64,000 nt of DNA, from the NCBI GenBank assembly GCA_002477825.1, contig DLKT01000060.1:16616-80615 (forward strand). The letters are read 5' to 3'. Numbering within the stretch: position 1 is the stretch's first letter; every line of letters starts with the position of its first letter. This document shows, in pieces, positions 26,935 to 43,712 of this stretch. The notes below the pieces were generated by a model. That model had not been told where the DNA came from and searched no databases. It saw only the letters and a program-made list of their open reading frames with translations. This DNA is from Bacillales bacterium UBA7581 (lineage in GTDB: Bacteria > Bacillota_I > Bacilli_A > RFN20 > CAG-826). The translations under genes were made by a program, and so were the position numbers.

Positions 26935-27888
26935 TTAATGAATGACATCAAAAGAAAGCAAAGCATTAGCGAATAATTTTCCTAATTCCACCATCGCTAG
27001 TGAGTCGTAGTGGCAGTAATCAATGCCATTATCCGGTTCTTTATCATAGGAAAGTTGATTTTGAATTGTATCAATGTAGTAATTATTTTCTTCATCTAAC
27101 AAAGCGTTATTTTTCTTTCCTTGATTGATGATAGAATAATTTTCCCAATATGGGGAAATGCCACCAGAAACGAATTTAATTTTGTTATCGCCTTCTTCAA
27201 CATAATAGCTAAACTCTTCTCTTAAATCTTTGATAAGATTCAGTTCATTACTTTCATATTGATTCGCGTAATAACCACCATCGGATTCACCTTGCATCCA
27301 GCAAATACCTTTTATATAGGGGTAATAATTTTGATCTTCTAATTCACTTAAACAGGAATGAATATAATCGACCATACCGGAATAAAGGACACCTACAGGT
27401 AAAGTTTCGGTTGAACTTGAAGTCGATAACCAATCTCTTTGAAGCGTGGTTCCTCCACTTGCGTATTTAATGATGAATAAATCGCGTTCAAATGTCTTCG
27501 TTTCAAAAACTTCATTCATACCAATCTCGGGGCCAAATCTTTCAAAATCATAACCCATACCTAAACGAATAGAAGAAAAGGTTTTTGATTCATTTAAATG
27601 GGTAGGTTGCATGGCATTACAACGGAATTTGATTTTGGTATTAGAACTATGTGCTTCAAAATATTTATTAAATAAAGTTTCATCTTTTTGCATTAACATC
27701 CGATTCCAAGTATTACCTTCCGCATTGGATTGTCCGCATAAAATAATGACATTGGCTTCTTTTACCATTGGTGTTTCACTCGTGGTAGGCACGCTTGAAG
27801 AAGTCGAAACGGGTGTATTCGAACAGGCACATAACATGAGTGTCATAAGAAGCACTGAAAATATATTATTTTTTCTTGTTTTTTCCAT
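26935..27888 (-). CDS. SASA/DUF303-type carbohydrate esterase lipoprotein (sialate-O-acetylesterase-like fold; probable acetyl esterase)
   Basis: Lipobox MLCACSNTP. Catalytic block IILCGQSNAEGN (GQSNMxG-type). Confidence 0.55.
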   Translation of the reverse strand: MEKTRKNNIFSVLLMTLMLCACSNTPVSTSSSVPTTSETPMVKEANVIILCGQSNAEGNTWNRMLMQKDETLFNKYFEAHSSNTKIKFRCNAMQPTHLNESKTFSSIRLGMGYDFERFGPEIGMNEVFETKTFERDLFIIKYASGGTTLQRDWLSTSSSTETLPVGVLYSGMVDYIHSCLSELEDQNYYPYIKGICWMQGESDGGYYANQYESNELNLIKDLREEFSYYVEEGDNKIKFVSGGISPYWENYSIINQGKKNNALLDEENNYYIDTIQNQLSYDKEPDNGIDYCHYDSLAMVELGKLFANALLSFDVIH

Positions 27889-27903
27889 TTGTTTTTTTCT
27901 CCT

Positions 27904-28746
27904 TTAATGATGAACCGGTTCCATCTTAGAATGATAGGGATAAAGCACTAAACGCTCATTACCATCGAAGGTATTTGGAGCATGGAAAGTCATCATTTTT
28001 TGACCGTCCTTTTCAAATACCATCGCGTGACCTCCATCTTCACTATAAATCGGTTGATCTTCTTGAATCCAAGGCCCTTTGATAGATTTACTATGGCATA
28101 CACCAATGGCGTATCCCGTTTTTGAATAGCTCGACCATATCATTTCTAAACCATCTTTTTGTTGAATGATAAATGGGCCATCGGTGACATAGTTATTTTT
28201 TCCTTGAAAGGCAATCGGCCATTTAGCGTCTTTTGCTGAAAATAGAATTTTCGGTTCACTAACGGGATGCGTTAAATCATCCGATAATTGCATTAAACAA
28301 ATCGTTCCATTTCCTATTTGAAGCCATTCGTGACAAAAGATAAGATAAGGTATTCCATTTTCTACCCAAAGGGTTCCATCTAAACATTCCCAATTTTTAG
28401 GCGTAATTGCGTGTTCGGTTAAACATGTAAATTCTCCGTCTGGACGATCAGAAACAAAGATTTGGGTTCCTCTACAACAATTGTCCGCTTTACAAGAGGC
28501 AAACAGATAGTACTTATTTTTGTATTTATGCATTTCTGGCGCCCAAAAATCTTTATTACCCCAGAAATGAGAATTTCCTTGAAAAATGATAGTGGGTTCG
28601 GTAAATTCTCCTAGATCTTTCGATTTATAAACAACAAATGAAGGATAAATCTCATCCTTTTTTTGATAGGCCGAATATAGATAATAGACTCCGTTTTCAA
28701 AATAAATAAATGGATCTCGAATATAAAGATCTTCTTTCTTAATCAT
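27904..28746 (-). CDS. Small cytoplasmic GH43-like five-bladed propeller glycosidase
   Basis: IRDPFIYFENGVYYLYS, WAPEMHKYKNKYYLFAS and DGPFIIQQKDG. 280 aa, no signal peptide. Confidence 0.55.
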   Translation of the reverse strand: MIKKEDLYIRDPFIYFENGVYYLYSAYQKKDEIYPSFVVYKSKDLGEFTEPTIIFQGNSHFWGNKDFWAPEMHKYKNKYYLFASCKADNCCRGTQIFVSDRPDGEFTCLTEHAITPKNWECLDGTLWVENGIPYLIFCHEWLQIGNGTICLMQLSDDLTHPVSEPKILFSAKDAKWPIAFQGKNNYVTDGPFIIQQKDGLEMIWSSYSKTGYAIGVCHSKSIKGPWIQEDQPIYSEDGGHAMVFEKDGQKMMTFHAPNTFDGNERLVLYPYHSKMEPVHH

Positions 28747-28760
28747 ATAATTTCACCTTC

Positions 28761-30956
28761 TCAGTTTTCTACCTTATCGAAGGTGATAACAATAGTTTCA
28801 AATTCTTCTAGCCATTTGATAAGATTAATGCCTACTAAACGTAGTTGTTTACCTGAATAAATCTTTCCATCTAATGAGTTTTGATAAAGTGTTTCATCGT
28901 CTAATCCATCGAATTTTAAGAAACGAGATAAGTTGCTTTCTCTTCTTTTATTAAAGAAAAGTGCAATGGCTTTTTCTTTATTTTTCGCTACACAAATCAT
29001 GGACATATGATTGGTTTCATAAGGAGATTCCATCCGATATAAATCACCATTTTGAATACAATCTAAATGATATTTTTTATAAAGATCTGCAATTTCGTTA
29101 ATTTGTTCAATATCTTCTTTATTTAAGTTCACTGGATTCATTTCATAACCATATGTTCCAAAAAGTGCGATTGCGCATTTTGCATAATAAGGAAGTAACG
29201 CACCACTAAAGGCATGAGAACCGATGGAGGATAATGGATATCCGTAGGTCGAAGCGTAATTAATGAACACTCTTTCGACTGCGTCGTTAGAGTCACTCGC
29301 TTGAATTTGGGGACAATACGATAACATTCCCATATCGAAACGGCCACCACCGGAAGCGCAGTGTTCAAATAAAATATTCGGATAACGTTCCACTAGCATA
29401 CCATAAAGACGATAAGCACCTTCCATAAAACGATGATACACTTCGCCTTGATGCTTTTTATTTAAAGTGGTGGAATACACTTCACTTAAACAACGATTGA
29501 AGTCAATTTTCACATAATCGATAGCGTATTGATCTAATAAATTACAAATTTGGGTATAAACATTTTGCACCGCTTCTTGATTCGTCATATCTAAGACGAG
29601 TTGATGTCTTCCTAAAGATAGCTTAATTCCTGGTAAACCTAAAGCATATTCAGGATGTTCTTGATAGAGTTTCGAGTGAAAAGAAATCATTTCCGGCTCT
29701 AACCAAATACCAAACTTCATGTGATTTTGGTGACAGGTCGCAATGATTTTTTCTAAATCAATCTTTTTAGGATTAACGGTCCAATCTCCTAAAGAAGAAG
29801 TATCATCATATCTTTCACCAAACCATCCATCATCTAAAACGAACACTTCGGTATTTAAAATTTTAGAATGTTCGATAAAATCACAGATTTTTTGAGTATC
29901 AAAATCAATGGTCGCGCCTTCCCAAGAATTAAATAAAATACCACGGTCGATGAAGGCATAAGGAGAACGAATAATATGTTGACGAACAAAATCATGTAAA
30001 GTTCTTGATAACGCGCCTCTTCCTTCATCAGAATAAGCCATAATGACTTCTGGTAAATATAATTTTTCATTTTCATCTAAACAATAGGAGAAGTCTTCTT
30101 CATTGATACCGAATAAAATACGCGTTGAATTCCATTTACTCACATCAACTTCAAAAGCAAAGTTACTAGAATACATTAAAGAAAATGCATACGCTTCTCC
30201 ATCTTTTTCATTGGTGTCCGGCCTTTCTAAGAAAAACACTGGATTTTCATTATGGGAAGTAAATCCATAATTTGATTGAATTCTTTCTTTTCCGTCATGG
30301 AGTTTTCTTCGACATATATTTTTTTCTTTACACCAATCCCCATAAAAATGCGTGAGATAATAATTGTCATCGGGTAAATCTAAAGTCATGGAATAGGCTT
30401 TTACGACATGGAAGGAATTTTTTCCTTTATTTTCGATATAAGCACTGCGTGTGATGACATCTAAATCTTCAAATATAGAATAGAATAAATGAACATAAGC
30501 TTCACTTAATTCATCTTTTAAAACGATTTCTAACGTCATACATTCTTCATCTTTTCCAAAAGAAGAAGGAAGGGTTTCTATTCCGGGTTTTCCTTTTAAA
30601 ATTTGATGAGATACATAGGTAAACTTTGTATAATTCGTATTTAAATCAGGTTTATGAATGATGATGGGCGCTCCACGTTTATCAAAACCACCATGGGTAG
30701 GAAGTTCCATCATCGAGAAATCTTCGTAGTAATGAAAATGAGCCCATGGCACCATTTTTTCAGAATTGGTTTCCTTATCTAAATATTGCCATCCCCACTC
30801 TCCTCTAGAAGTGAGATTTTGTAAATCTAAGTTTTCTAAATAGGGGCCAAAATAAAAGTGTTGAAGATAATTAAAATCATTAATTCCTAAATAATAAGAA
30901 ATTCTTTGGTTAAATAAATGAAAGTATCTTTCTTTCTCGTTATAGTAAATCAACAT
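28761..30956 (-). CDS. Alpha-galactosidase, glycoside hydrolase family 36
   Basis: GH36 blocks IDYVKIDFNRC (KWD-type nucleophile region) and HCASGGGRFD (SGGGR signature). 731 aa. Confidence 0.8.
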   Translation of the reverse strand: MLIYYNEKERYFHLFNQRISYYLGINDFNYLQHFYFGPYLENLDLQNLTSRGEWGWQYLDKETNSEKMVPWAHFHYYEDFSMMELPTHGGFDKRGAPIIIHKPDLNTNYTKFTYVSHQILKGKPGIETLPSSFGKDEECMTLEIVLKDELSEAYVHLFYSIFEDLDVITRSAYIENKGKNSFHVVKAYSMTLDLPDDNYYLTHFYGDWCKEKNICRRKLHDGKERIQSNYGFTSHNENPVFFLERPDTNEKDGEAYAFSLMYSSNFAFEVDVSKWNSTRILFGINEEDFSYCLDENEKLYLPEVIMAYSDEGRGALSRTLHDFVRQHIIRSPYAFIDRGILFNSWEGATIDFDTQKICDFIEHSKILNTEVFVLDDGWFGERYDDTSSLGDWTVNPKKIDLEKIIATCHQNHMKFGIWLEPEMISFHSKLYQEHPEYALGLPGIKLSLGRHQLVLDMTNQEAVQNVYTQICNLLDQYAIDYVKIDFNRCLSEVYSTTLNKKHQGEVYHRFMEGAYRLYGMLVERYPNILFEHCASGGGRFDMGMLSYCPQIQASDSNDAVERVFINYASTYGYPLSSIGSHAFSGALLPYYAKCAIALFGTYGYEMNPVNLNKEDIEQINEIADLYKKYHLDCIQNGDLYRMESPYETNHMSMICVAKNKEKAIALFFNKRRESNLSRFLKFDGLDDETLYQNSLDGKIYSGKQLRLVGINLIKWLEEFETIVITFDKVEN

Positions 30957-32793
30957 AGTTCACTTCCTCTATTCTTGTTATTTTTTGTCCACTGACAGGA
31001 TCAAATAAATGTAATTTTTCCATATTCACTTTCAGTAAAATATGGGCACCTGAACGAATGATATAATGGTTCGGTACTTTAGCAATTAAATCAGTAGATG
31101 ATAAATCTGAATGCACATAATAGTCACTACCAATGAGTTCCACTATCGTGGTATTCACGTCAATACAAGAGCTTTCTAACTCTCTAACTAAAGTTAAATC
31201 CTCTGGACGAATACCAATTTTCACTGCATGCGGGCCTTTTAAGTATTGTTCATAGGTTTGAATAATCTCTTGAATTTTTTGCTTTTTTTCTTCCATCGTC
31301 GTTGGAATACTTTCGACGGGCTTAGTGCCACTATCCTTATTTTGCGTAAAGGCTTTAAAGGATTGAATCTTTTGTAATTCTAAATCGATGACACTATCTT
31401 CTTTATCGCTTAATATTTCTAAAATACGTTTAAGAATTTTCGTCATCTTTGCTTTAGCAAAAAGGCTATTTTCTTTGATATCTTCTAATGCATCTAATTC
31501 GTCTTGTACCTTGATAGCGACATCTTCCAATAATTCATCGATAGAGAATAAAGACGTTTCTTTTAAAATCTCTTGAGCATCCTTAAGTTCTTTGTTTTTC
31601 ATTTTTAAAAGAAGATTCTCCACTTGCTCTTTCACTTTTAAACTACCTGGATGATGGATTCTTTTTAATAAAGTTTTCCAAAATTCTAGTTTTTGTTTAT
31701 AAAATTCTTGGTGTTGATCTTCTATTCTTTTTGCGTACTCCAATTTTGTACCATCTTCTAAAGTAATGATACCTTGATTATAAGTTCCACTAAAGATATT
31801 CATCGCTGGTGCCCCAATAAAGGTTGCGACGAAGAGATTTTCTGGGTTCATATAGATTTCTCTAGGGGACCCAATTTGTTGAATCCATCCTTTGTTCATA
31901 ACGACAATTTTCGTAGCCATGGTCATGGCTTCGGTTTGGTCATGGGTAACATAAATCGTAGTGGCTCCAACATTTTTATGAATACGAACAATTTCACTTC
32001 GCATGGACACTCTTAATTTCGCATCTAAATTACTTAAAGGTTCATCCATTAAGAAGAGTTTTGAATTTCTCACTAACGCTCTTCCTAAGGCAACACGTTG
32101 CATTTGTCCACCGGATAACTCTTTCGGTTTACGGTCTAAATAGGCGCCTAAATCTAAGAAATTCGCTGCGTTAAACACTTTTTCTTTAATTTCCTTTTCC
32201 GTGTATTTTCGTAAAACATAGATGTGTTCAGGATTCTTTTCTAATTTTTCAATTTCTAATTGTATTTCTTTTCTTTCTTCTACTTTTGTTTCTTCTAAAG
32301 AAGAAAGTTTTTTCTTTAATTCTTCAATTTTTTCATGGTTGATGGCTACAATTGGTTGCTTGGTCTTTTTATCTAACTTAGGTAACCATTCTTTTTTTAC
32401 TCTTAATCCATAACTCATATTTTCGTAAACCGTCATATGGGGATATAAAGCATAAGATTGGAAAACCATAGCGATTCCGCGGTCTTTACTCGGTAAATAG
32501 TTCGCTAATTGTTGATTGATATAAAGATAGCCACTAGAGATTTCTTCGAGTCCAGCAATCATACGTAAAGTGGTCGACTTTCCACATCCAGAAGGTCCTA
32601 CTAAAACAATAAAATCGTGAGGATCAATTTCTAGATTGAAGTTAAAAACAGCTTGTACTTTATTGGGATAAACTTTATTAATTCCTTGTAAAGAAACAAA
32701 GCTTTGAATATTTTCATTACGAAGCATCTTATGATTTTCTTTATATTGTTTTCTTGCTTCCTTCACAGTAATCTTTTTTTCTTTTTTCATCAT
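30940..32793 (-). CDS. Sugar ABC transporter ATP-binding protein (MsmK/MalK family) with an insertion in the helical subdomain
   Basis: GPSGCGKST, LSGGQMQRVALGRA, LFLMDEPLSNLDA and YVTHDQ. About 90 aa of charged coiled-coil-like insert (KKLSSLEETKVEERKEIQLEIEKLEK) between the Q-loop and the signature. Paralogue of 4294-6693. Confidence 0.85.
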   Translation of the reverse strand: MMKKEKKITVKEARKQYKENHKMLRNENIQSFVSLQGINKVYPNKVQAVFNFNLEIDPHDFIVLVGPSGCGKSTTLRMIAGLEEISSGYLYINQQLANYLPSKDRGIAMVFQSYALYPHMTVYENMSYGLRVKKEWLPKLDKKTKQPIVAINHEKIEELKKKLSSLEETKVEERKEIQLEIEKLEKNPEHIYVLRKYTEKEIKEKVFNAANFLDLGAYLDRKPKELSGGQMQRVALGRALVRNSKLFLMDEPLSNLDAKLRVSMRSEIVRIHKNVGATTIYVTHDQTEAMTMATKIVVMNKGWIQQIGSPREIYMNPENLFVATFIGAPAMNIFSGTYNQGIITLEDGTKLEYAKRIEDQHQEFYKQKLEFWKTLLKRIHHPGSLKVKEQVENLLLKMKNKELKDAQEILKETSLFSIDELLEDVAIKVQDELDALEDIKENSLFAKAKMTKILKRILEILSDKEDSVIDLELQKIQSFKAFTQNKDSGTKPVESIPTTMEEKKQKIQEIIQTYEQYLKGPHAVKIGIRPEDLTLVRELESSCIDVNTTIVELIGSDYYVHSDLSSTDLIAKVPNHYIIRSGAHILLKVNMEKLHLFDPVSGQKITRIEEVNYVDLL

Positions 32794-32803
32794 TTTGTCC
32801 TCA

Positions 32804-33670
32804 CTACCTTTTAATACCTGTCATGGATACGCCTTCCACTAAACGATCTTGAATAATACAATAAAGAATAAAAATCGGAATCATGGAAATGACAGAACAC
32901 GCTAATTGGATGCCGACTTTGGTGTAGGATTGATTTCCTTCAATGACTTTAGAAAGTCCAACCGCCAAAGTCCACATCTTTTTATCTGCTTTACCAATGA
33001 TTAATTCAGCCCATTGTAAGTCATTCCATGCGCCTAAGAAACTAAATAAACCTTGTACTAAAAGCGCTGATTTTCCTAAAGGTAAAACAATAGTACGGAA
33101 AATACGGAAGTTACTTGAGCCATCCATTCTTGCATTTTCAATTAAGTCTTTGGGAATACCTAGGAAGAATTGACGAATTAAATAAAGGCCATAAACACCG
33201 CATAATCCCGGTAAAATTAAACCTAACAGATTTTTATTTAATCCCATTTGGATGATGTTCGTAAATTGCGGTACGGTATTGACAATGCCTGGCACGGTCA
33301 TCGTGGCAATTAAAAATCCAAAAAGGATATTCGCGTATTTTAAATCCATAAATACAAAGGCATATGCCGCTAAAGACGCAATCGCTAAATATATAAACGT
33401 TGTGGCTAGAGCGACAATGAAACTATTGATAATCCAGTTGAATACAGGATATTCTTCACTAGAAAAAATAGCAATATAGTTTTGAATCGTCCATGCTTTT
33501 AAATTTGTTGGAAGAAAACTTCCTGGATAGAAGCGTAAATCATTTGCGTCTCTAAACGAAGAGATAACGCCCCAAATGAGTGGAAAAAGTAATAATAAAC
33601 AAACAATCAATAAAACAGCAGAACTAACGTATTTTCCCAGATGCTTTGAACGTTTTAAATTGTTTTGCAT
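32804..33670 (-). CDS. Carbohydrate ABC transporter permease (MalG-like)
   Basis: Paralogue of 8488-9438. ENARMDGSSNFRIFRTIVLPLGKSAL. Start may lie downstream of 33670 because the ORF overlaps the upstream permease by 47 bp. Confidence 0.75.
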   Translation of the reverse strand: MQNNLKRSKHLGKYVSSAVLLIVCLLLLFPLIWGVISSFRDANDLRFYPGSFLPTNLKAWTIQNYIAIFSSEEYPVFNWIINSFIVALATTFIYLAIASLAAYAFVFMDLKYANILFGFLIATMTVPGIVNTVPQFTNIIQMGLNKNLLGLILPGLCGVYGLYLIRQFFLGIPKDLIENARMDGSSNFRIFRTIVLPLGKSALLVQGLFSFLGAWNDLQWAELIIGKADKKMWTLAVGLSKVIEGNQSYTKVGIQLACSVISMIPIFILYCIIQDRLVEGVSMTGIKR

Positions 33671-34622
33671 ACTTATCCCCTCCTTTTCTTTCTTTAGTAA
33701 TTAACATTTGTGCAACCGAAATTAGAGCGATAAATACACCTAAACAAATCGCCATAGCGGAAGTCATTCCGTATACGGCAAAGTTGGTACCTTTTAATTG
33801 GTTTTGAATGACATAAATCACGGTATATACCGAATTTTGGGGTTGAACATAAGAACCTAAAATGTAACATTGACCATAAAGATTCATATATCCACATACC
33901 GTGGTAAATAAGCAAATAATCATTTGATTTTTAATTTGTGGAAAAGTAACATCAAATCGTTGTCTAAATTTACTACAACCATCAATAGCACTTGCTTCAT
34001 ATAATGATTTATCCACATTTTGTAAGGCAGCGGTAAAGATAACAAAGTTGGTGCCTAATCCACCCCAAACACAGAAAAGGATAATGATCATCCATACAGT
34101 AGTTGGGTTTTGTAACCAGTTTACATTGATTTTGAATAGGTTATTAATAAAACCATATTCATTGTTAAACATATTTAAAAAGATAACGCCAGTTGCGGTA
34201 ATAGGAAAAATGCCTGGTAAATAAATAATCGCCCGGTAGATTTTGTATCCTGGTGGTTTGGCATTAATTAATAACGCTAATCCAAGAGGAATCAAAATAC
34301 AAAGAGGGACAATAATTGCGGTGGCCATCAACGTGTTTTTCATACCATTCCAAAAGTCTTTATAATACGATGTATTGGAATCAAAAAGGATCTTTTGATA
34401 ATTTAAAAATCCTCGCCATGAAATATCATTGACATTCGCAATATTATATCGATATAACGACATAATGCACCCCTTAATAAAGGGGTACATGAAAAAGACG
34501 ATAAAAGAAATTAAGTAGGGTGCCATAAATAAAATGGCCAATCCATATTTCTTTAAAAAGCTTGTCGTTTTAGATACGCGTTTGGTATATTCCTCGATGG
34601 TTGTTCTCTTGGATGAAAACAT
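33624..34622 (-). CDS. Carbohydrate ABC transporter permease (MalF-like)
   Basis: Polytopic. EASAIDGCSKFRQRFDVTFPQIKNQMI. Confidence 0.75.
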   Translation of the reverse strand: MFSSKRTTIEEYTKRVSKTTSFLKKYGLAILFMAPYLISFIVFFMYPFIKGCIMSLYRYNIANVNDISWRGFLNYQKILFDSNTSYYKDFWNGMKNTLMATAIIVPLCILIPLGLALLINAKPPGYKIYRAIIYLPGIFPITATGVIFLNMFNNEYGFINNLFKINVNWLQNPTTVWMIIILFCVWGGLGTNFVIFTAALQNVDKSLYEASAIDGCSKFRQRFDVTFPQIKNQMIICLFTTVCGYMNLYGQCYILGSYVQPQNSVYTVIYVIQNQLKGTNFAVYGMTSAMAICLGVFIALISVAQMLITKERKGGDKYAKQFKTFKASGKIR

Positions 34623-34624
34623 AA

Positions 34625-36154
34625 CTACAAGTCCTCACGATCTGAGATTCTAAGCATGCAATCTTGATAATTGGTCTCAAGAATACTACTAATGGTTTTA
34701 CTCTTATAAGTAGAAGCCATCACTTGTTTAATCGCAACTTGATAAGATTCATAGATTTCATCATAGTAAATAGTGGATGGAAGAATTTGATATTGCGTTG
34801 TGCTTCCATAATATTGAACATATTTTTTATAGTATTGGTTATTTAAATATAAATCATCGGAAGATTGCACAATTAAAGAAGCAGGAAGGTGTCCAGCTTG
34901 TGTCCAAACGCCACCACAGTTTTCCGCCAAATAGTTGATGAAGATAGCGGCAGCAATTCTTTCGGTTCTACTCTTACAGGTCTTTACAATTGTAGCGGTA
35001 TGAGAATCACCAAAGATTGCATTAGCGTATGGTTTCGTATTATCTAAAGCAAATAAATTACCAAAATTTAAGATAGCCATGTTTTTTGCACTTCCACCAT
35101 CAGCGGCGTACATACTATCAATTAAAGCAGTATCTTTATAACCACTCCAAGCACCATCTAAATAGAAAGCAGATCCGCCTGAGTGGAATTCAGAAATACC
35201 CGCATCATAGTTTAAATCTGGTTTACTTAAAGCATGACGGTTGACACTGGTTTCCGTTGGCCAGAACCAATCTCTTAAAATTTGTAAGCCTCTTGCCACT
35301 TCTTCGGTATTATAAGCAGGTTTACCTTCATCATTCACTAATTTTCCACCGTTTTGTAAAGCAACGGTTTGAGATAAATAAGCATTGACCCACATATCAC
35401 CAGAAGAAATAGGGAATGGATAATAAGGTCCTTCTAAATCAGGAACATATTTTCTCCATTTATAAACATCATCGGTCGTTACGGCAGAAGAATTATTTCC
35501 TCTTACCCATAATTCACCTTGTTCTGCTTTTTCTACTAAGGTATCACAGACACCCATAAGCTCAACATAATTCGTTGGCATATTGATTCCGTTTTTCTCT
35601 AAAATATCTTTTCTAACGAAAATCATCGTAGAGTCTACAGAAATAGGAAGACCATATAAACGATCACCAACAAAGCAAGCAGAAATTAAATTGGTTTCAA
35701 AATAAGAGGCATCAAAACCAATATTTGCGGTTTCTAAATACGTATCGATAGGCACTAAAATGTCATTATCTTCTAAGGATGCAATTTTTTCACCATAACC
35801 ATAGAAAATATCGGGTGCGTTATCAGGATCTTGGGTTACCGATTGCGCTAAAGCGCCATAAATAGAATAACGTGATTCATGATAAGGATTAATTTTGATT
35901 TGTCCTTTATAAAGCTCGTTAAATTGGTTGATGATTTGATCTTGATACACACTATCCGGATTGGTGCAAACGCTCCACATACTTAATTCAATGTTATCAA
36001 AAACAACATTTCCGTTTTCATCATAAGCGACATCATCAATAGAATCATCCACCCATTCATTTTTGGTAGAACTTGTAGAAGTTGTTCCGCCACAAGCAAT
36101 TAATGATAGAGACGCGATGGATAATGCCATCCATTTGGTAAATCTTTTTTTCAT
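34625..36154 (-). CDS. Extracellular solute-binding lipoprotein of the ABC sugar importer
   Basis: Lipobox SLIACGGTTSTSST. 509 aa. Position is immediately upstream of the permease genes. Confidence 0.7.
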   Translation of the reverse strand: MKKRFTKWMALSIASLSLIACGGTTSTSSTKNEWVDDSIDDVAYDENGNVVFDNIELSMWSVCTNPDSVYQDQIINQFNELYKGQIKINPYHESRYSIYGALAQSVTQDPDNAPDIFYGYGEKIASLEDNDILVPIDTYLETANIGFDASYFETNLISACFVGDRLYGLPISVDSTMIFVRKDILEKNGINMPTNYVELMGVCDTLVEKAEQGELWVRGNNSSAVTTDDVYKWRKYVPDLEGPYYPFPISSGDMWVNAYLSQTVALQNGGKLVNDEGKPAYNTEEVARGLQILRDWFWPTETSVNRHALSKPDLNYDAGISEFHSGGSAFYLDGAWSGYKDTALIDSMYAADGGSAKNMAILNFGNLFALDNTKPYANAIFGDSHTATIVKTCKSRTERIAAAIFINYLAENCGGVWTQAGHLPASLIVQSSDDLYLNNQYYKKYVQYYGSTTQYQILPSTIYYDEIYESYQVAIKQVMASTYKSKTISSILETNYQDCMLRISDREDL

Positions 36155-36172: not shown

Positions 36173-37345
36173 TTAATTAATATAAGGTCCAGGAATTTCA
36201 CCTAAACTAGGATAGGTTTCCTTACAAATAGGGAAGCCTTTTTCATTCCAATAAATTCGGTCAATATATAACGTTCTTGTATTTTGTTGACCAGTAGTTG
36301 AAGCACTTGGATTATAGGCATGATAGACAATCCAATCTAAACCTTTATCATCTTGTACAATTGCACAGTGACCTGGTCCCATACCTCTTTTTAAATGCGG
36401 TTGAATGACCATTGTGCCACGATTCGGTCCATCAATTGCTCTTCCGTTTTGACCTACATAAGGTCCATATAATGTTTCTGAGCGACCCACAACAACGTGA
36501 TAATCAGATTGTAAGCCTGCGCAACATCCGCCCGTCGATAAATACAAATAGTAATAACCATTTTTCTTTTGAATAAAGGAAGCTTCATAGTTATCGTTAT
36601 AATATAAATCAAAGCCAGCAATTTGCACTTTATTTTCTTTTTGTGTTTCTAATCCATCTTTTAACGATAAGCCATCATCGCTGAGTTCCATAATCCAAAT
36701 ACCATCACCACTACCCCATACGCAATAAACGGTTTCTTCTTCAATAAAGACATAGCAGTCAATGGAATTTTTAACGCCTATATCTTTGGAGTCAAAGATT
36801 TTTCCATAATGAGTCCATGGTCCATAAGGGGTTGGGGCACTTGCTACTCCAATTCCGGTGTAGTCCGAATAATAGCCACCTGCTCCTAAGGTATAATAGA
36901 AAACATATTGGTCTTTGATTTTTGCTACAGAAGGTGCCCAAACGCCGCCTTCACCATTATTCCAGCCAATATATTGTTGATAGTTCGGTGTATCTAAAAA
37001 TACCGAGCCACAATATTCCCACGTTTGCATATTACGACTTTTGAAAATAGGACCGGGATCAAAACCATATCCCTTTTCTCCTCTTGTGCAATCAAGTTGG
37101 GTGGAATATAAGTAATAATATCCGTCGTCTCCTCTTAAACAGAAGGGGTCGGCTATTCCTACAAACTCTTTTTCACCATTGGGTTTTAAAAAGACACCGG
37201 GATTCGTAATCATGTTATTGATATCACCAGCATCTTCATAAATGTCAATAGAAGTCACTGAAGTGGAAGGTTCATTTTTTCCACACGCCGCGAATGATAG
37301 AAGCGTGAAGATAAAAATAAAGAAGCGAAATAATTTTTTCATCAA
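36173..37345 (-). CDS. GH43 family glycoside hydrolase lipoprotein
   Basis: Lipobox SFAACGKNEPS. GIADPFCLRGDDGYYYLYST and WAPSVAKIKDQYVFYYTL. Confidence 0.75.
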   Translation of the reverse strand: MMKKLFRFFIFIFTLLSFAACGKNEPSTSVTSIDIYEDAGDINNMITNPGVFLKPNGEKEFVGIADPFCLRGDDGYYYLYSTQLDCTRGEKGYGFDPGPIFKSRNMQTWEYCGSVFLDTPNYQQYIGWNNGEGGVWAPSVAKIKDQYVFYYTLGAGGYYSDYTGIGVASAPTPYGPWTHYGKIFDSKDIGVKNSIDCYVFIEEETVYCVWGSGDGIWIMELSDDGLSLKDGLETQKENKVQIAGFDLYYNDNYEASFIQKKNGYYYLYLSTGGCCAGLQSDYHVVVGRSETLYGPYVGQNGRAIDGPNRGTMVIQPHLKRGMGPGHCAIVQDDKGLDWIVYHAYNPSASTTGQQNTRTLYIDRIYWNEKGFPICKETYPSLGEIPGPYIN

Positions 37346-38553
37346 TACTGTTCCTCCTTCTTTTTCTCTTTTACGATATAAGTTGGGCCTAGATGTTCAT
37401 TAGAAGACGCAACTTTATCTTTTACATAAGGCATGGATGTTTTTTCATCCCATAAAAGTTGATCAATAAATAATGTTCTGGTATTTTTGTTGGAACTCGT
37501 TTGATCATAACCATGATAAACCATCCAATAATCGCCGATATCATCCTTTACAACCGAACAATGTCCGACGCCTGTAGCAAATTCACGATTATTGGTGACG
37601 ACAATATCGCCGTCACCCGATGACATCATGTCATTGCCTAATGAATCTTTAAACCCACCAAGTAAGGATTGGCTTTTGGCCACTACAACATGATAACCAG
37701 CATCAATACCTCCATCCCATCCACCAAGAGATAAGAAGAGATAGTAATAACCATCTTTTTTTACAATGTGCGCGGCTTCAAAGTTATCAATGGAGCCTTG
37801 TACCCAACCCCAACCAGCAATTTTATGCATATTTTCTTTGGCATAAGATAATCCGCCATACATATCAATGCCATCAGGAGACATTTCGGCAACGTAAATT
37901 CCATCACCACTCCCCCAAATCATCCAAACACTGCCATCATCGTCGACAAATACATCTTGATCGGATGAATTATAAACACCAATTTCTTCACTATCGAAAA
38001 CTTTTCCATAGTGCGTCCATGGTCCATAAGGAGTAGGTGCCGTGGCAACACCAATGCCTGGATTATAAGAAGAGCCGGCACTTAATGTATAATAATAATT
38101 ATATTGATCGGCAATTTTTACCACGTTCGGCGCCCATACACCAGGCACAATACCGGCATATTGTTGTCCCCATTTTAAGACATCTTCTTGCCCATCAAAC
38201 ACACTTCCCACATAAGTCCAATTCACTAAGTCAATACTTCTCCAAATGGGGCCATAATCGAAGCGATATCCACTATCATCACCTCTAAAAACGGTTTCGT
38301 TTGTCGAGTATAAATAATAGTAACCATCATCCGCTTTAAGGCAAAAAGGGTCGGCGCAAGGGCCGAAGCCCTTTTCGCCTTTCCCTATATCGAATTGAAT
38401 TGAATTTTTGTAAGTCGTATTTGTATATTGGATATCTGGAGGATTTTCTGTCGTATTACTTGTTGTATTTTCTTCCATTTTACCACACGCACTGATAGAA
38501 ATGGTAGTAAATGCAAGTAAACTCAACAGCGTTAATCTTTTGAAATTCAACAT
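37342..38553 (-). CDS. GH43 family glycoside hydrolase lipoprotein (paralogue of 36173-37345)
   Basis: Lipobox ISACGKMEENTTS. CADPFCLKADDGYYYLYSTNE and WAPNVVKIADQYNYYYTL. Overlaps the downstream gene by 4 bp. Confidence 0.75.
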   Translation of the reverse strand: MLNFKRLTLLSLLAFTTISISACGKMEENTTSNTTENPPDIQYTNTTYKNSIQFDIGKGEKGFGPCADPFCLKADDGYYYLYSTNETVFRGDDSGYRFDYGPIWRSIDLVNWTYVGSVFDGQEDVLKWGQQYAGIVPGVWAPNVVKIADQYNYYYTLSAGSSYNPGIGVATAPTPYGPWTHYGKVFDSEEIGVYNSSDQDVFVDDDGSVWMIWGSGDGIYVAEMSPDGIDMYGGLSYAKENMHKIAGWGWVQGSIDNFEAAHIVKKDGYYYLFLSLGGWDGGIDAGYHVVVAKSQSLLGGFKDSLGNDMMSSGDGDIVVTNNREFATGVGHCSVVKDDIGDYWMVYHGYDQTSSNKNTRTLFIDQLLWDEKTSMPYVKDKVASSNEHLGPTYIVKEKKKEEQY

Positions 38554-38563
38554 ACTTTTCTCC

Positions 38564-40657
38564 TTATTCTATTCCGTAAAATGTAACGTTTCTAAATGTG
38601 CCAGAAGCATAGTTTGCTCCAAAAATAGGATGATAATTTCCAACATAAGAAGTCGTAATATTTAAAACGGCTGTATCATTGAAATATAAGACTAAAGTAG
38701 CACTGGTTTCTGAAGTAATCGTTCTTACTAGTTTATAATGACCTTCAACCGTTGTGCCATCCGCACGAGTCGCACTGTCTTGTGTTTCCCAATAAGTATG
38801 AGCTCCACTACTCCATGTAAAGACACGATAATCGAATGCTTGTGCTCCGTTATTGGTCATCGCGAAGGTATCTGCAACATATGGGCTTTCAATACCGACT
38901 TGACGTAAGGCTACACCGATACGGTTATTATTATCATTTGCATTATCTGAACCCACATCACTTAAATCAAATTCAATGGCGAAGTTTCCTTTTAATAATG
39001 CTTTATCGCCAAGAGGTTTAACAGCAACATTTTGGAAAACGTCTCCTTTTGCTAAACTAAATTCAGAATCACTCACAAAGGTAACGCGACCACTCGTATC
39101 TCCATTAAAGAAGATTTGTTTAAAAGCAGCTGTATTAAGTTTTTCATCAATAGTAGCGTTATCTAAAGTAACAGACCAGTTGGTAATATTAATTTGTGTA
39201 TCTTTAGTAATAATCGTTGGATAAGTATTCACATCATGGAATTTATCACTGATTTCAAACCAATATAATTTGTTATTTAATAAATAGTAATAGTTATCTC
39301 CATCTCTTAAAATGCCTAATTTTAAATCCGAAGGATCCATGGTGCTAATACCATTGGCTTGCCAAATCATGGATTGAGCGGTAATTGCACCCCAACCATT
39401 AGGAACGTCCATCATTACGGTCTTTTGTCCTTCTTTTGGTGAGAAGAAGAATGCTCTTGCATGTCCGTCTGCGTCATCGGTTGCAGAACCGATACCAAAT
39501 CTTGCCCAACCATCGTTAGAACTTCCGATCATCGAGACACTCGCTTCTGCATAATATCTTGTACCACTTGCATTAAACATTGCAAAGGCGTGTGGGTTAT
39601 CGGTATCACTTACTGCACTCGTTTGAAGATAAGGTTCATCTTTATCATTCATATGAGAATAATCAACATTTTTCGCATATCCTTCTTTATTAATTAAGAA
39701 ATCTGGACGAATAGCCGTAAAGGAATATGTACCAAAGATTTCTTCTTTAACTAAAGATGCGACTTTAATGGTTACGGTTCCATCTTTTAATACACTAACG
39801 GTATTTCCTTCAATGGAAGCGGCATCGCTAGGATCAATAGTCACTTGTACATTTTCATCAGCGGTGCTTGGTAAAATGGTATAGTCTAATTCAAAAGAAG
39901 TACCAACATAATAAGAGGTTTTTGTATTGTTAATCGTAATAGAAGTTGGCGCTGCTTTTAAGACTTGGATAGTTAATTCATCTTTGACTTTATCATCGAA
40001 TTTTGAAACCACACTAATGGTAGCAGAACCATCTTTTAAAAGTTTAATTTTGTTTTCTTTCATTTCTAAAACAGTAGAATCACTAATTTCAACTTTAACA
40101 TCTTCTTTGCATTCTGTTGGTGTAACAGTATAGCTAAGTTCAAATTCATCACCTACACGTCCTGAAGTGAAATCTTTATTAATTTCAATTTTGGTAGGGA
40201 CTTTTTTAGAAACTTCAAAAGTAATTTCATCTTTCACTGTTTCATTACTTGCACTGCTTGCTGTAATGGTAACTGAACCATCACTTAAGAAATTAACAAG
40301 TCCTGTGTCAGAAACCGTAGCGACGGTTGCACTACTGGTCTTATACACTAATGTTGTATCTGCATTTTCTCCAGTCGTCGTTAATTTTGTATTAATTTGA
40401 ACGGAATCACCCACAAAATATTTGGTGGTTTCATTGGTAATTTTTACTTCTGTAACCTTTGGGGTTTCTACCGTTGTCGTTGGCGTTACCGTCGTTGTTG
40501 GTGTCACCGTAGTAGTCGGTGGCACTGTCGTTGTTGGGGTTACGGTAGTAGGTGTCGTGTTTGAACTAGAAGATGGTTGATTTCCACAAGAAGTTAAAAG
40601 ACCTGCTGTACCTAAAATCGTTCCTAAAATCGTACCGAATAAAGTAATTTTTTTCAT
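38564..40657 (-). CDS. Surface lipoprotein with a Thr/Pro-rich repeat linker, BIG2-like domains and the PKFG/LRDG-YY domain (possible glycan-binding protein)
   Basis: Lipobox LLTSCGNQPSSSS. Linker TTVTPTTTVPPTTTVTPTTTVTPTTTVETP. Ig-like VSDTGLVNFLSDGSVTITASS. Domain ARFGIGSATDD...GILRDGDNYYYLL. Confidence 0.6.
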   Translation of the reverse strand: MKKITLFGTILGTILGTAGLLTSCGNQPSSSSNTTPTTVTPTTTVPPTTTVTPTTTVTPTTTVETPKVTEVKITNETTKYFVGDSVQINTKLTTTGENADTTLVYKTSSATVATVSDTGLVNFLSDGSVTITASSASNETVKDEITFEVSKKVPTKIEINKDFTSGRVGDEFELSYTVTPTECKEDVKVEISDSTVLEMKENKIKLLKDGSATISVVSKFDDKVKDELTIQVLKAAPTSITINNTKTSYYVGTSFELDYTILPSTADENVQVTIDPSDAASIEGNTVSVLKDGTVTIKVASLVKEEIFGTYSFTAIRPDFLINKEGYAKNVDYSHMNDKDEPYLQTSAVSDTDNPHAFAMFNASGTRYYAEASVSMIGSSNDGWARFGIGSATDDADGHARAFFFSPKEGQKTVMMDVPNGWGAITAQSMIWQANGISTMDPSDLKLGILRDGDNYYYLLNNKLYWFEISDKFHDVNTYPTIITKDTQINITNWSVTLDNATIDEKLNTAAFKQIFFNGDTSGRVTFVSDSEFSLAKGDVFQNVAVKPLGDKALLKGNFAIEFDLSDVGSDNANDNNNRIGVALRQVGIESPYVADTFAMTNNGAQAFDYRVFTWSSGAHTYWETQDSATRADGTTVEGHYKLVRTITSETSATLVLYFNDTAVLNITTSYVGNYHPIFGANYASGTFRNVTFYGIE

Positions 40658-40668
40658 TGTTTTTCTCC

Positions 40669-42480
40669 TTAGTTACTTTCTATTTCTTTAAAATCAAAGT
40701 TTTTAACAGTACCTTTTGCGTGATTAGCACCAATCATGATTAAGTATTTTCCGGTGTAGTTAATCTTTAATACTTTTTCATTGTTGTTTGCGTCAAAGAA
40801 CGTATATTCTGTACCATTTAAATAAACTTTAAAAGTCGATGAAATGCTACCTACAGTTCTTTCAATTTTCACATGAACGGTTGTTAAATCTTTGGTTAAA
40901 GATTCAAATTTTGAAGAATTGTAACTGGCATTTGCAATCGTGCCATAAGAGAATTGAGAATCATAATTCCAAGTTCTAAAATGGAAAGATTGTTCGTCTA
41001 CCATAATGGAATCGCACACAACAGGGCTATCGGTGTCATATCTTCTTAAAGCCACACCTAACATTGAATTGATATCATCAGCAAAGTTTTCATAACCTTC
41101 GACATCAAATTCGATGGTAAAGTTACCGCCAATCATGCCTTTATCGCCATAGGTTTTTACACATTGATCACGGAAACGATAATTTTCTTCGTTTGCATAG
41201 ATGTTATTAAATTTGAATTCTGTGTTGCTCACTACCGTGACTTGACCAGTTGAAGTACCACTATTAAAGAATTTTTTATCTAAATCCGCTGATTGAAGCA
41301 TGGTATTTAAAGTTGCCTCATCATTTACATATTTCGCTTCGCTAGCGGTAAAGGAGGTATCTTTAGATAAAACAACAGGTAAAGTTCCCATATCGTTAAA
41401 ACGATTGTTGGATTCATACCAATAAAGAGAGCCATTAATGGTGTAATAGTAATTATTACCATCTCTTAAAATACCCATGGTAAGATTGGTTGGATCCATA
41501 TCACGAATACCATTGACTTGCCAAATCATTGAACGAGAGGCCGCAGCACCCCAGGTGTTTGGGAAATCCATCATTACGGTCTTTTGTCCTTCTTTAGGTG
41601 AGAAATAGAAGCCTCTTGTATCATTATCATTAGAGCCACTTCCAATACCCACTCTCGTCCAAGCATCCGTAGTGGATGCTAAGATGTTGAAGGTTACTTC
41701 AGCATAATATTTAGTGGATGGTGATGCATTAAACCATGCCATAGCGGCTGGGTTATCACCTTCAATTAATGTATTTTTGGTTTGAATATAAGCTTCTTTA
41801 TCCGCTTGGTGAGAATAGTCCATGTTATCGGCATATCCACCTTTGTTAGTAAAGAACATTCCTTTTTTCACTTCATAAGTTTTCTTATCAGAAATGGTTG
41901 AATCCGAAATTGAAGTGACGGTAATTTCTACTTCGCCTGCTTTTAAGAAAGAGATTTTTCCATTTGCATCAACGGTCGCTACCGTTTCATCTGATGACTT
42001 GTAGGTTAAACGTGGATCGGCGCTTTCAGGAGTTAAAGTAACACTTAGAGTAGCGTCTTCTCCAACCCAACCTAAGCCATTTCCTTCTCCGTTAATTTTT
42101 ACACTAGTCGGTCTATTAGCAGCAATAACTGTAACTTCTACTGAAGTGTAAATGGAAGGATCAGCAGCTAAAGCAATTTTAATCTCCGCTTTTCCTTCAC
42201 TAATACCGGTTACTCTTCCACCTTCAACTGTGGCAATAGCTTCATTTGAGCTAGACCAAACCACGTCACGTTTAGCAGTACCTGAAACAAGTACACGAAT
42301 CGTAATGGTATTTCCTACCGATACTTCTTTGATGGTTGAAGTAACTTTGATTTGGATATTACTTGGTGCTTCTGTAGTTACTGACATGCTTGTACTTGCA
42401 TCCTGATGATTGCAAGCAGCCAAAGTTGTACAGGTACAAAGTAATAATGGAAATAATAGTAAACATTTCTTTATTTTCAT
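40669..42480 (-). CDS. Surface lipoprotein, paralogue of 38564-40657
   Basis: Lipobox TLAACNHQDAS. SSDETVATVDANGKISFLKAGEVEITV. TRVGIGSGSNDNDTRGFYFSPKEGQKTVMMDFPNTWGAAASRSMIWQVNGIRDMDPTNLTMGILRDGNNYYYTI. Confidence 0.6.
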   Translation of the reverse strand: MKIKKCLLLFPLLLCTCTTLAACNHQDASTSMSVTTEAPSNIQIKVTSTIKEVSVGNTITIRVLVSGTAKRDVVWSSSNEAIATVEGGRVTGISEGKAEIKIALAADPSIYTSVEVTVIAANRPTSVKINGEGNGLGWVGEDATLSVTLTPESADPRLTYKSSDETVATVDANGKISFLKAGEVEITVTSISDSTISDKKTYEVKKGMFFTNKGGYADNMDYSHQADKEAYIQTKNTLIEGDNPAAMAWFNASPSTKYYAEVTFNILASTTDAWTRVGIGSGSNDNDTRGFYFSPKEGQKTVMMDFPNTWGAAASRSMIWQVNGIRDMDPTNLTMGILRDGNNYYYTINGSLYWYESNNRFNDMGTLPVVLSKDTSFTASEAKYVNDEATLNTMLQSADLDKKFFNSGTSTGQVTVVSNTEFKFNNIYANEENYRFRDQCVKTYGDKGMIGGNFTIEFDVEGYENFADDINSMLGVALRRYDTDSPVVCDSIMVDEQSFHFRTWNYDSQFSYGTIANASYNSSKFESLTKDLTTVHVKIERTVGSISSTFKVYLNGTEYTFFDANNNEKVLKINYTGKYLIMIGANHAKGTVKNFDFKEIESN

Positions 42481-42734: not shown

Positions 42735-43712
42735 ATGCAACAAAAAAAGAATATTACATTAAAAGATATTGCTTTAAGAGCAGGTATATCGATTAATGCT
42801 GTTTCAAGAGCGTTAAGAGATTCACCTGACATTTCTGAACCAACAAAAGAAAGAGTGCGAAAAATCGCTACGGAATTAGGTTATGTACCCGATAGTGTGG
42901 CCCGTAGTTTAAAAAATGACAATTCTAAAATTGTCGCTCTTGTATATAACGACTTCTATAATCCTTATTTCGCTATTTATTGTGAAAAGGTTTTTCACTA
43001 CATCAAAGAAAAAGGTTACAAATGTAACCTTATTTATTCTGACACGAACCTTATGACCATGAATGATATTGAAAATATCATGATCAATCGTTATTGTGGT
43101 GTTATTTCTTTTGTGGAACCCACCACTGATGTTGCTCTCTTCTTTAAAAAAAGAGAAATTCCTTTTTGCTTAGTTGGTATTAATTCTAACGTTGAATATA
43201 TTGATTGTGTTTATACCGATGATATTGATGGTGGCAGACAAGTGGGAAATTATTTTGTTCAAAATGAGTTCACTAAAGCTCTTTATCTAACAAATAGTAT
43301 TTCGGAAACAAGCTTCCGAAGATTTTTAGGCTTTTCTGAAGTCGTTAATGCATCAAATAAACCCTTTAGTTTCATTCCATATCAATACCAAAAAGATTTC
43401 ATTCAAATTGCTTATAAAAAAATCGTTTCCGAAGATATCGATTTCGTCTTCTGCTTTTCTGATTCGTTAGCAATTGAACTTATCAGTTATTTAAAACAAA
43501 AAAGAATGAAAAAGAAAATTAAAATTATTGGATACGATGATATTCATCAATTCTATCCTATTTTTAAAAATGTCGATTCTGTTAGAACAGACACGGAAGA
43601 AATTGTACATTTTGCCTGCGATCTTATTATTGATAAAGTGACGCAAGAAAAAAATATTAATGAATATTTCACTAAAATGTTTCCAACATACCTTCACATT
43701 ATTAAAGAATAA
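42735..43712 (+). CDS. LacI family transcriptional regulator (divergent from the locus-2 operon)
   Basis: HTH IALRAGISINAVSRALRDSPDISEPTKERVRKIATELGYVPDSVARSL plus a sugar-binding core. Confidence 0.85.
   Translation: MQQKKNITLKDIALRAGISINAVSRALRDSPDISEPTKERVRKIATELGYVPDSVARSLKNDNSKIVALVYNDFYNPYFAIYCEKVFHYIKEKGYKCNLIYSDTNLMTMNDIENIMINRYCGVISFVEPTTDVALFFKKREIPFCLVGINSNVEYIDCVYTDDIDGGRQVGNYFVQNEFTKALYLTNSISETSFRRFLGFSEVVNASNKPFSFIPYQYQKDFIQIAYKKIVSEDIDFVFCFSDSLAIELISYLKQKRMKKKIKIIGYDDIHQFYPIFKNVDSVRTDTEEIVHFACDLIIDKVTQEKNINEYFTKMFPTYLHIIKE

Follow-up and report, generated by a model that had tools for sequence, protein, structure and literature searches.

The surface glycan-binding proteins (SGBPs) of the polysaccharide utilization loci of Bacteroidota, with SusE and SusF, are lipid-anchored, non-catalytic proteins in which an Ig-like stalk carries distal binding domains, and their genes stand beside those of surface glycosidases. 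We propose a similar design for four lipoproteins, here named A, B, C and D, that are encoded in a stretch of 64,000 nucleotides from Bacillales bacterium UBA7581 (order RFN20, family CAG-826; GenBank assembly GCA_002477825.1, contig DLKT01000060.1, positions 16,616 to 80,615), referred to below as the window. All four share a domain that we call X1, and C and D end in a further domain, X2. We consider it reasonably likely that X1 is a non-catalytic carbohydrate-binding module (CBM) and that A–D are surface glycan-binding lipoproteins, with an arabinan-type ligand in the case of C and D. An initial annotation of this DNA had likened the proteins to SusE/SusF and SGBPs, and the likeness survives as an analogy of function but not as homology. 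SGBPs are displayed on an outer membrane and accompany the TonB-dependent SusC/D pair, whereas A–D would be held in a single membrane and accompany ATP-binding cassette (ABC) importers with a lipoprotein solute-binding protein (SBP), and the binding fold is a different one. The neighbouring susC/susD pair by which SGBPs are recognized is absent from the A–D loci, which hold no SusC/D-like genes and in which uptake would be by the ABC importers. A structural search with Foldseek gives BoSGBP-B (6e57) as a weak match of D.

In the gut Firmicute Ruminococcus bromii, the non-catalytic surface glycan-binding protein Sas6 is built from CBMs (bioRxiv 10.1101/2022.11.20.514607). Its specificity is for starch (CBM26, CBM74), unlike the ligands that we propose for A–D. 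The CBMs of Sas6 are joined by Ig-like domains, and the protein is attached through the dockerin/cohesin amylosome and not by a lipid anchor. The closest functional precedent for the role proposed for C and D is Domain 4 of AbnA, the arabinanase of glycoside hydrolase family 43 (GH43) from Geobacillus stearothermophilus. This domain is a concanavalin-A-like sandwich with a Trp-rich concave face; isothermal titration calorimetry revealed that arabinan and arabino-oligosaccharides are bound, and those who described the domain put it forward as a new CBM family (PMC9110388). We considered Domain 4 as a relative of X1 and rejected it, as there is no sequence match and it is absent from the top structural hits.

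In structure, X1 is alike to CBM66, the C-terminal module of the Bacillus subtilis exo-levanase SacC (4b1m), with 8–14% structure-based identity. CBM66 binds levan and other fructans (PMC8715580), whereas X1 stands in a GH43 and arabinanase-like context, and the window holds no GH32 gene, the neighbours being GH43, GH36, GH2 and GH3, so that the setting speaks against a CBM66-like binding of X1 to the non-reducing ends of fructans. X1 further differs from CBM66 in its occurrence in lipoproteins that stand alone and in arrays with as many as 10 copies. Structurally near as well is DUF1080 (PF06439), represented by BT3469 (4jqt), which consists of two tandem domains, and by ECA2234 (3mep).

Four lipoproteins and the module they share

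The four proteins and their domains lie in the window as follows.

13562..14716, minus strand: protein A, 384 amino acids, with lipobox, linker, Big_2-like domain and X1; first gene of the locus-1 operon
13565..14305, minus strand: X1 of A (amino acids 138–384), with larger loops and a C-terminal helix
17716..20487, minus strand: protein B, 923 amino acids, with lipobox, Big_2, X1, Big_2, middle domain, Cys-rich segment and C-terminal domain
19510..20130, minus strand: X1 of B (amino acids 120–326), from BLASTP, HHalign and a hidden Markov model (HMM)
38564..40657, minus strand: protein C, 697 amino acids, with lipobox, Thr/Pro linker, three Big_2 domains, X1 and X2
39137..39709, minus strand: X1 of C (amino acids 317–507), from HMM
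38567..39136, minus strand: X2 of C (amino acids 508–697), from HMM
40669..42480, minus strand: protein D, 603 amino acids, with lipobox, two Big_2 domains, X1 and X2; first gene of the locus-2 operon
42412..42480, minus strand: signal peptide and lipobox of D (amino acids 1–23, LAAC), with C23 invariant in 15 homologues
41866..42354, minus strand: two Big_2 Ig-like domains of D (amino acids 43–205), from Pfam and the AlphaFold model
41323..41865, minus strand: X1 of D (amino acids 206–386), the shared module, predicted to have a lectin fold, from HMM, HHalign, AlphaFold and Foldseek
40681..41271, minus strand: X2 of D (amino acids 404–600), a predicted second concanavalin-A-like sandwich, from HMM, HHalign, AlphaFold and Foldseek

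All four open reading frames (ORFs) are present where the initial annotation had placed them, and each opens with a signal peptide ending in a lipobox, with the Cys at position 24 in A (VASC), 21 in B (LASC), 24 in C (LTSC) and 23 in D (LAAC). This Cys is invariant in the alignment of 54 homologues of A, as it is in that of D. By the pattern of an N-terminal signal peptide followed by [LVI][ASTVI][GAS]C, A–D are bacterial lipoproteins with predicted lipidation. The family CAG-826 is predicted to lack peptidoglycan, and the order RFN20 to lack sortases (PMC10868615), which would leave lipid anchoring as the available route for surface display. Indeed, all of the extracellular components that we inspected (A–D, two GH43 enzymes, a GDSL esterase and the SBP of locus 1) are lipoproteins, as this predicted loss would explain, and the lipoprotein-anchored, Mollicute-like context suggested initially agrees with the predicted lack of a wall in CAG-826.

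Searches with the full proteins A–D against Pfam, NCBIfam and PDB sequences (phmmer) found Big_2 (PF02368) as the sole family. Its Ig-like repeats, which had been reported for all four proteins, score above the Pfam gathering threshold of 22.8 bits in B (42.8 bits, two stretches), C (43.5 bits, three stretches) and D (56.9 bits, two stretches); the single stretch of A falls below it at 19.7 bits, and there the structure model places an Ig-like beta-sandwich. The Thr/Pro linker reported alongside them is evident in the sequence of C. C is a paralogue of D (37% identity across 585 amino acids), and an identical copy of D occurs on 10 metagenomic contigs.

X1 is homologous across A, B, C and D, as judged by sequence and profile comparison. 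BLASTP with the X1 regions alone finds C and D 52% identical (E 1e-70) and yields 34.7 bits for A with B and 32.7 bits for B with C, both significant for a targeted comparison; the X1 of A gives no significant direct match with that of C or D. An HMM of the C/D-family X1 likewise scores B at 17.9 bits and A at just 3 bits. In profile–profile comparison with HHalign, the A-family aligns with the C/D-family at 95.6% probability (E 1e-8, 174 columns), and the X1 of B aligns with the A-family at 97.4% (E 1.5e-11) and with the C/D-family at 91.2% (E 1e-6). As a negative control, the adjacent X2 compared with each X1 set reaches 0.2–0.5% probability, below 1% in every case. The common domain asserted in the initial annotation is thereby borne out across three subfamilies, including its expectation that the four proteins would align by a proper profile method. 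A combined X1 HMM run over a six-frame translation of the window hits exactly four ORFs, A–D, with the next best at 4 bits; as this HMM was built from A–D and their relatives, the scan speaks only to the absence of a fifth copy. X2 is confined to C and D among the ORFs of the window, A and B being without it.

The module is larger than first described. X1 measures about 180 amino acids in C and D, 207 in B and 247 in A, and the extent of about 130 given initially covers the core strands only. The motifs picked out at that time (PKFG, W, LRDG-YY) are these core strands and prove to be a family-wide signature: from 233 X1 instances in 128 proteins we obtain the consensus Y-x-E ... [DE]-x-x-P-K-[FV]-G-[IL] ... 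F-x-x-D ... W ... K-x-L-x3-R-x-D-G ... Y-x-x-V-N-[DG]. The conserved residues, in the numbering of D, are Glu261, Asp272, Arg276, Gly278, Trp310, Arg339, Asp340, Tyr345 and Asn349. When the subfamilies of A, B and C/D are taken together, one Gly is the sole invariant residue, which leaves X1 without a conserved catalytic set.

Predicted fold of X1 and X2

Structures were modelled with AlphaFold2 from family alignments. The model of D (mean predicted local distance difference test score, pLDDT, 84.4; predicted template modelling score, pTM, 0.74) consists of two Ig-like domains (43–205), an all-beta X1 (206–386), a short helical connector and an all-beta X2 (404–600). That of A (mean pLDDT 90.2, about 97 across the folded part) comprises one Ig-like domain (53–140), X1 (about 150–357) and a terminal helix. 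We took as the mark of a concanavalin A-like lectin/glucanase superfamily member a two-sheet curved beta-sandwich (jelly roll) of about 150–250 residues that can be superposed on lectins, LamG, SPRY or GH16, and in the models X1 belongs to this superfamily at the level of fold. Its structural matches include ECA2234, the lectin domain of galactocerebrosidase, BT3469 and legume lectins, as well as C-terminal sandwiches of GH32 and GH43 enzymes. The initial annotation had named a well-characterised non-carbohydrate fold as the result that would speak against a glycan-capture module; the predicted fold of X1 is not a dedicated one of that kind but lectin-type, though the class includes SPRY.

For X1 and X2 of D together, the top Foldseek match is BT3469, at E 6e-10 over 462 columns, and tandem galectins and laminin LG4-5 are aligned with this pair of domains as well. 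The alignment with these two-domain proteins suggests that X2 is a second lectin-fold sandwich. An origin of the pair by internal duplication was considered and rejected at the sequence level (HHalign 0.5%), despite the predicted lectin fold in both; X1 and X2 are mutually unrelated in sequence and thus not a simple duplication, a difference from DUF1080 proteins such as BT3469. X2 has no Pfam or PDB sequence match, and in relatives it always stands directly after X1, twice so in a fused protein (P0129).

In sequence, X1 stands apart from these structural neighbours. The X1 profile finds no match among all PDB sequences even at E≤10, that of CBM66 (4b1m) included. A set of 24 X1 sequences is without a meaningful Pfam match at E≤1, PF06439 included, and X1 shows no SPRY/PRY profile match. 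The sole bridge is one X1 copy of a relative (P0145, residues 864–1024), the best of the relatives, which scores 25.1 bits against PF06439, where the cutoff is 26.8 bits, and 21.3 bits against Laminin_G_3. These nulls and the lone bridge point to X1 as a divergent, unmodelled concanavalin-A-like branch that is nearest to DUF1080 and CBM66; since it falls short of both families by sequence, we file it under neither, CAZy families being sequence-defined and the SacC module being the founder of CBM66. As compared with Pfam, NCBIfam and the PDB, with CAZy/dbCAN outside the comparison, X1 is a probable new sequence family of known fold and functional kind, and the original remark that the domain is unnamed stands within the same bounds. 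X2 is probably a second new sequence family.

Domain partners and gene neighbourhoods

Word-indexed searches found 15 relatives for D, 57 for A and one protein for the X1 of B, so that the family came into view only with an exhaustive search by HMMER. With an alignment of 24 X1 sequences, hmmsearch over 1.84 billion representative proteins returned 493 clusters at E≤1e-3, 284 of them at E≤1e-10. The architectures are those of A (Big_2 followed by X1, about 380 amino acids), of B (Big_2, X1, Big_2 and three unnamed regions, about 900) and of C and D (Big_2 repeats, X1 and X2, about 600), together with multi-X1 proteins that hold 2–10 copies and reach 4,795 amino acids, the range per protein thus being 1–10 tandem copies. 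At the N-terminus, most of the X1 relatives listed have either a signal peptide of lipobox type or a hydrophobic anchor. The public names that were looked up for X1 proteins are either absent or "Ig-like domain-containing protein", and members of the B-type cluster carry the name Coprobacillus sp. CAG:826.

In Pfam scans, 16 of 40 multi-domain relatives contain Big_2, 7 contain GH43, 6 a GDSL esterase, 6 Flg_new_2 and 3 CBM9_1. Two X1 modules follow the GH43 domain in P0134 (GH43 at 59–393), P0131 (54–385) and P0145, and precede it in P0151; in P0095 the order is GH43, GDSL and three X1. The arrangement X1-GDSL-X1 recurs in six proteins (P0135, P0153, P0187, P0177, P0190, P0210). X1 is therefore a discrete fold that occurs in cis within carbohydrate-active enzymes (GH43, GDSL esterase), as is expected of a CBM. 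The genomic contexts agree: GH43 and ABC sugar-importer genes accompany X1 in eight of the eight distinct contexts examined, and the genes of P0135, P0092 and P0074 each adjoin GH43, SBP and two permease genes. P0074 (L019 10001-21040) is a protein of 3,679 amino acids that combines six X1 with Flg_new_2 repeats, a GDSL esterase, BNR_2 (sialidase-like) and F5/8 type C (CBM32-like), and its gene lies next to three GH43 genes and an ABC importer.

C and D open locus 2, whose further parts are listed here.

36173..38553, minus strand: two GH43 lipoproteins directly downstream of C (lipoboxes in the sequence; Pfam GH43)
30940..36154, minus strand: ABC importer with SBP, two permeases and ATPase (Pfam-type domain annotation)
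26935..30956, minus strand: distal genes for a GH36 alpha-galactosidase, a 280-amino-acid GH43 and a SASA-type esterase
42735..43712, plus strand: divergent regulator of the LacI family, upstream of D (LacI by Pfam for the identical gene of L001)

The order in the direction of transcription is D, C, GH43, GH43, SBP, permease, permease, ABC ATPase, GH36, GH43 and SASA esterase, just as the initial annotation had read its beginning. Spacing between genes runs from a 47-nucleotide overlap to an 18-nucleotide gap, and C and D are co-transcribed with the enzymes across intergenic gaps of 10–11 nucleotides. The two GH43 lipoproteins are closest to endo-1,5-alpha-L-arabinanases (1gyd, 6a8h and 3cu9, E 1e-22 to 1e-27), and for the 280-amino-acid GH43 a match is found in 5c0p, an "endo-arabinase" entry (E 3e-63). 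Loci of just 44–48% identity (L008, L011) keep the order D-like, C-like, GH43, GH43; a third GH43 is added in L011, and the SBP gene comes next in L008, which derives from the metagenome-assembled genome of a higher-GC Firmicute. In a further relative, D and C are fused into one protein of 1324 amino acids (P0129, L018 10001-13975) with Big_2, X1, X2, Big_2, X1 and X2, which argues that C and D act together. Its cluster (GH43, GH43, SBP, two permeases, ABC ATPase, the fusion protein, GH36, GDSL, GH43 and LacI) has nearly the gene content of locus 2 in another order. Scans for promoters, terminators and operators between D and the LacI gene, and upstream of A and B, gave results no better than chance. 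Just past the LacI regulator lies an AbiEii-type toxin gene (44436-45269, minus strand).

Locus 1 begins with A and continues as follows.

13550 down to 2168, minus strand: RDD membrane protein, solute-binding lipoprotein, two permeases, GH2, ABC ATPase and GH43 (707 amino acids)
987-2171, minus strand: last ORF of the locus-1 range, 394 amino acids, without annotation

The order from A to GH43 is kept beside homologues of A that are about 42% identical (L013, L014). The RDD-type gene (12291-13550, minus strand; 11232-12485 in L013 and 11194-12462 in L014) encodes a polytopic protein of about 420 amino acids with a weakly RDD-family N-terminus. It always lies between the A-type gene and the SBP gene, a pairing likewise kept at about 42% identity, and its product could be a membrane partner of A or a transporter accessory. 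The ABC-importer ATPases are long for the MalK type, with 617 amino acids in locus 2 (30940-32793, minus strand) and 799 in locus 1 (4294-6693, minus strand), and 693–702 in relatives; the match to ABC_tran is broken up or interrupted in them, suggestive of large insertions.

The gene of B is flanked by a GDSL lipoprotein and GH3 on one side and by a LacI regulator on the other, and L014 has a B-like protein in the same position. After its second Big_2, B contains three conserved regions that are without a Pfam match (amino acids 405–923; 17719-19275, minus strand): a middle domain of about 195 amino acids; a Cys-rich segment of about 100, in which C-x(n)-C-x2-C is repeated and zf-CHY matches weakly (E 0.29); and a C-terminal domain of about 220. 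Most of the B-type relatives listed have the first two of these regions, and a few (P0132, P0155, P0197) have the C-terminal domain as well. A CBM9-like assignment of the middle domain, suggested by its sequence pattern, was rejected, as Pfam gives it no support in B or in ten B-type relatives; where X1 relatives have a genuine CBM9_1 match, it lies in a separate domain at the N-terminus. The GDSL esterase lipoprotein that stands alone beside B (20636-21658, minus strand) is of the enzyme type that is fused between X1 modules in other genomes, so that B and this esterase may be a split version of the X1-GDSL-X1 proteins. A Fic/DOC-family gene (23981-25027, minus strand) lies between the GH3 gene and enolase; with the AbiEii-type gene, it is of defence or toxin type and interspersed with the sugar loci.

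Proposed glycan capture and its alternatives

The initial annotation had offered X1 as a possible glycan-capture module, and this idea gains its support mainly from architecture, that is, from the GH43 and GDSL fusions, the tandem arrays and the GH43 and importer neighbours. Such cis fusions, arrays and neighbourhoods are stronger support for glycan binding than the fold is, and the high-copy arrays suggest avidity for polymers. A further point in favour is that the lectin fold of X1 comes nearest to that of a proven CBM. Judged from the adjoining arabinanase-like enzymes, C and D most likely bind arabinan or a related side chain, of pectin or arabinogalactan, that is rich in arabinose.

Gene structure, lipoboxes, X1 homology, predicted fold, fusions and neighbourhoods are observed, and it is from these that we infer glycan binding by X1, its ligand, its exposure at the surface and its cooperation with enzymes. 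Several points weigh against this interpretation. The guess at the ligand of C and D comes solely from neighbouring enzymes, and the presence of the GH36 alpha-galactosidase in locus 2 means that the substrate could differ from arabinan. By sequence, X1 matches neither CBM66 nor another CBM of solved structure. Finally, the PRY-SPRY domain of TRIM67 ties with CBM66 as the best structural match of D, and as protein-binding SPRY domains belong to the same fold class, the fold alone is not decisive. Indeed, the concanavalin-A-like fold serves protein binding (SPRY) and catalysis (GH16, PL7, DUF1080) as well.

The tie with TRIM67 is also what gives weight to the notion that X1, X2 or both bind the GH43 lipoproteins or the SBP through SPRY-like contacts and organise an enzyme–transporter complex without binding any glycan. 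The strict synteny of the C and D gene pair with the GH43 pair and the constant pairing of A with an RDD-family membrane protein are in keeping with such a scaffold. However, the enzyme fusions in cis of many relatives make a recruiting role unnecessary, and high-copy tandem arrays suggest avidity for a polymer over a defined protein partner, so that we regard a scaffold as improbable. The arrays bear equally on the view that X1, X2 or both are catalytic, as an undescribed glycoside hydrolase, lyase or 3-keto-sugar hydrolase on the concanavalin-A-like fold: up to 10 tandem copies, and copies appended to genuine catalytic domains, are typical of binding modules. The best matches in structure are to modules without catalysis, in sequence X1 matches none of the catalytic families, and the finding of a single invariant Gly across the A, B and C/D subfamilies also speaks against an active site; we give catalysis equally little credence. 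An adhesive function, in which X1 proteins would bind host mucus glycans, host proteins or other microbes and serve attachment and not substrate capture, seems unlikely, if slightly less so. All eight contexts are sugar-utilisation clusters with GH43 and importer genes, X1 is fused to plant-glycan enzymes, and C and D are co-transcribed with such enzymes at close spacing.

If X1 is a glycan-binding module, as we favour, the system could work as follows. A diacylglycerol-modified Cys would tether each protein in the membrane of a probably wall-less bacterium, with the Thr/Pro linker and one to three Big_2 Ig-like domains as a stalk, and polysaccharide would be bound by X1 at the distal end, with X2 after it in C and D. 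At locus 2, pectic side chains of the arabinan type would be captured on the cell surface by C and D and cut there by the two arabinanase-like GH43 lipoproteins whose genes are co-transcribed; the oligosaccharides would then enter through the lipoprotein SBP and ABC permease and reach GH43 and GH36 in the cytoplasm. A would play this part for locus 1, and B for the GDSL/GH3 region. In its most extended form, which we put forward tentatively and hold to be rather doubtful as a whole, X1 would be a new CBM family specific for arabinose-rich plant glycans, with arabinan, arabinogalactan or arabinoxylan side chains as ligands, and X2 a second new binding family; C and D would be the SGBP counterpart in peptidoglycan-less Bacilli (RFN20/CAG-826) and would form, with the GH43 lipoproteins and the SBP, one single-membrane assembly for capture, cleavage and import.

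As descriptions of new CBM families with a known fold appear regularly, the finding is useful rather than surprising, and X1 is a good candidate for biochemical study. The gut orders RFN20 and RF39 are uncultured, with reduced genomes, partly wall-less and poorly understood in their ecology, and the window documents that one such lineage (RFN20/CAG-826) invests in several lipoprotein-based plant-glycan loci. The X1 family is probably the element by which such loci, and many large surface enzymes of Firmicutes, recognise glycans. Should binding be confirmed, X1 would be a new CBM family, possibly one of two with X2, for the annotation of GH43 and esterase loci; it would supply a probe for arabinose-rich glycans, and the system would be a worked example of a single-membrane bacterium that reproduces the SGBP logic of Bacteroidota.

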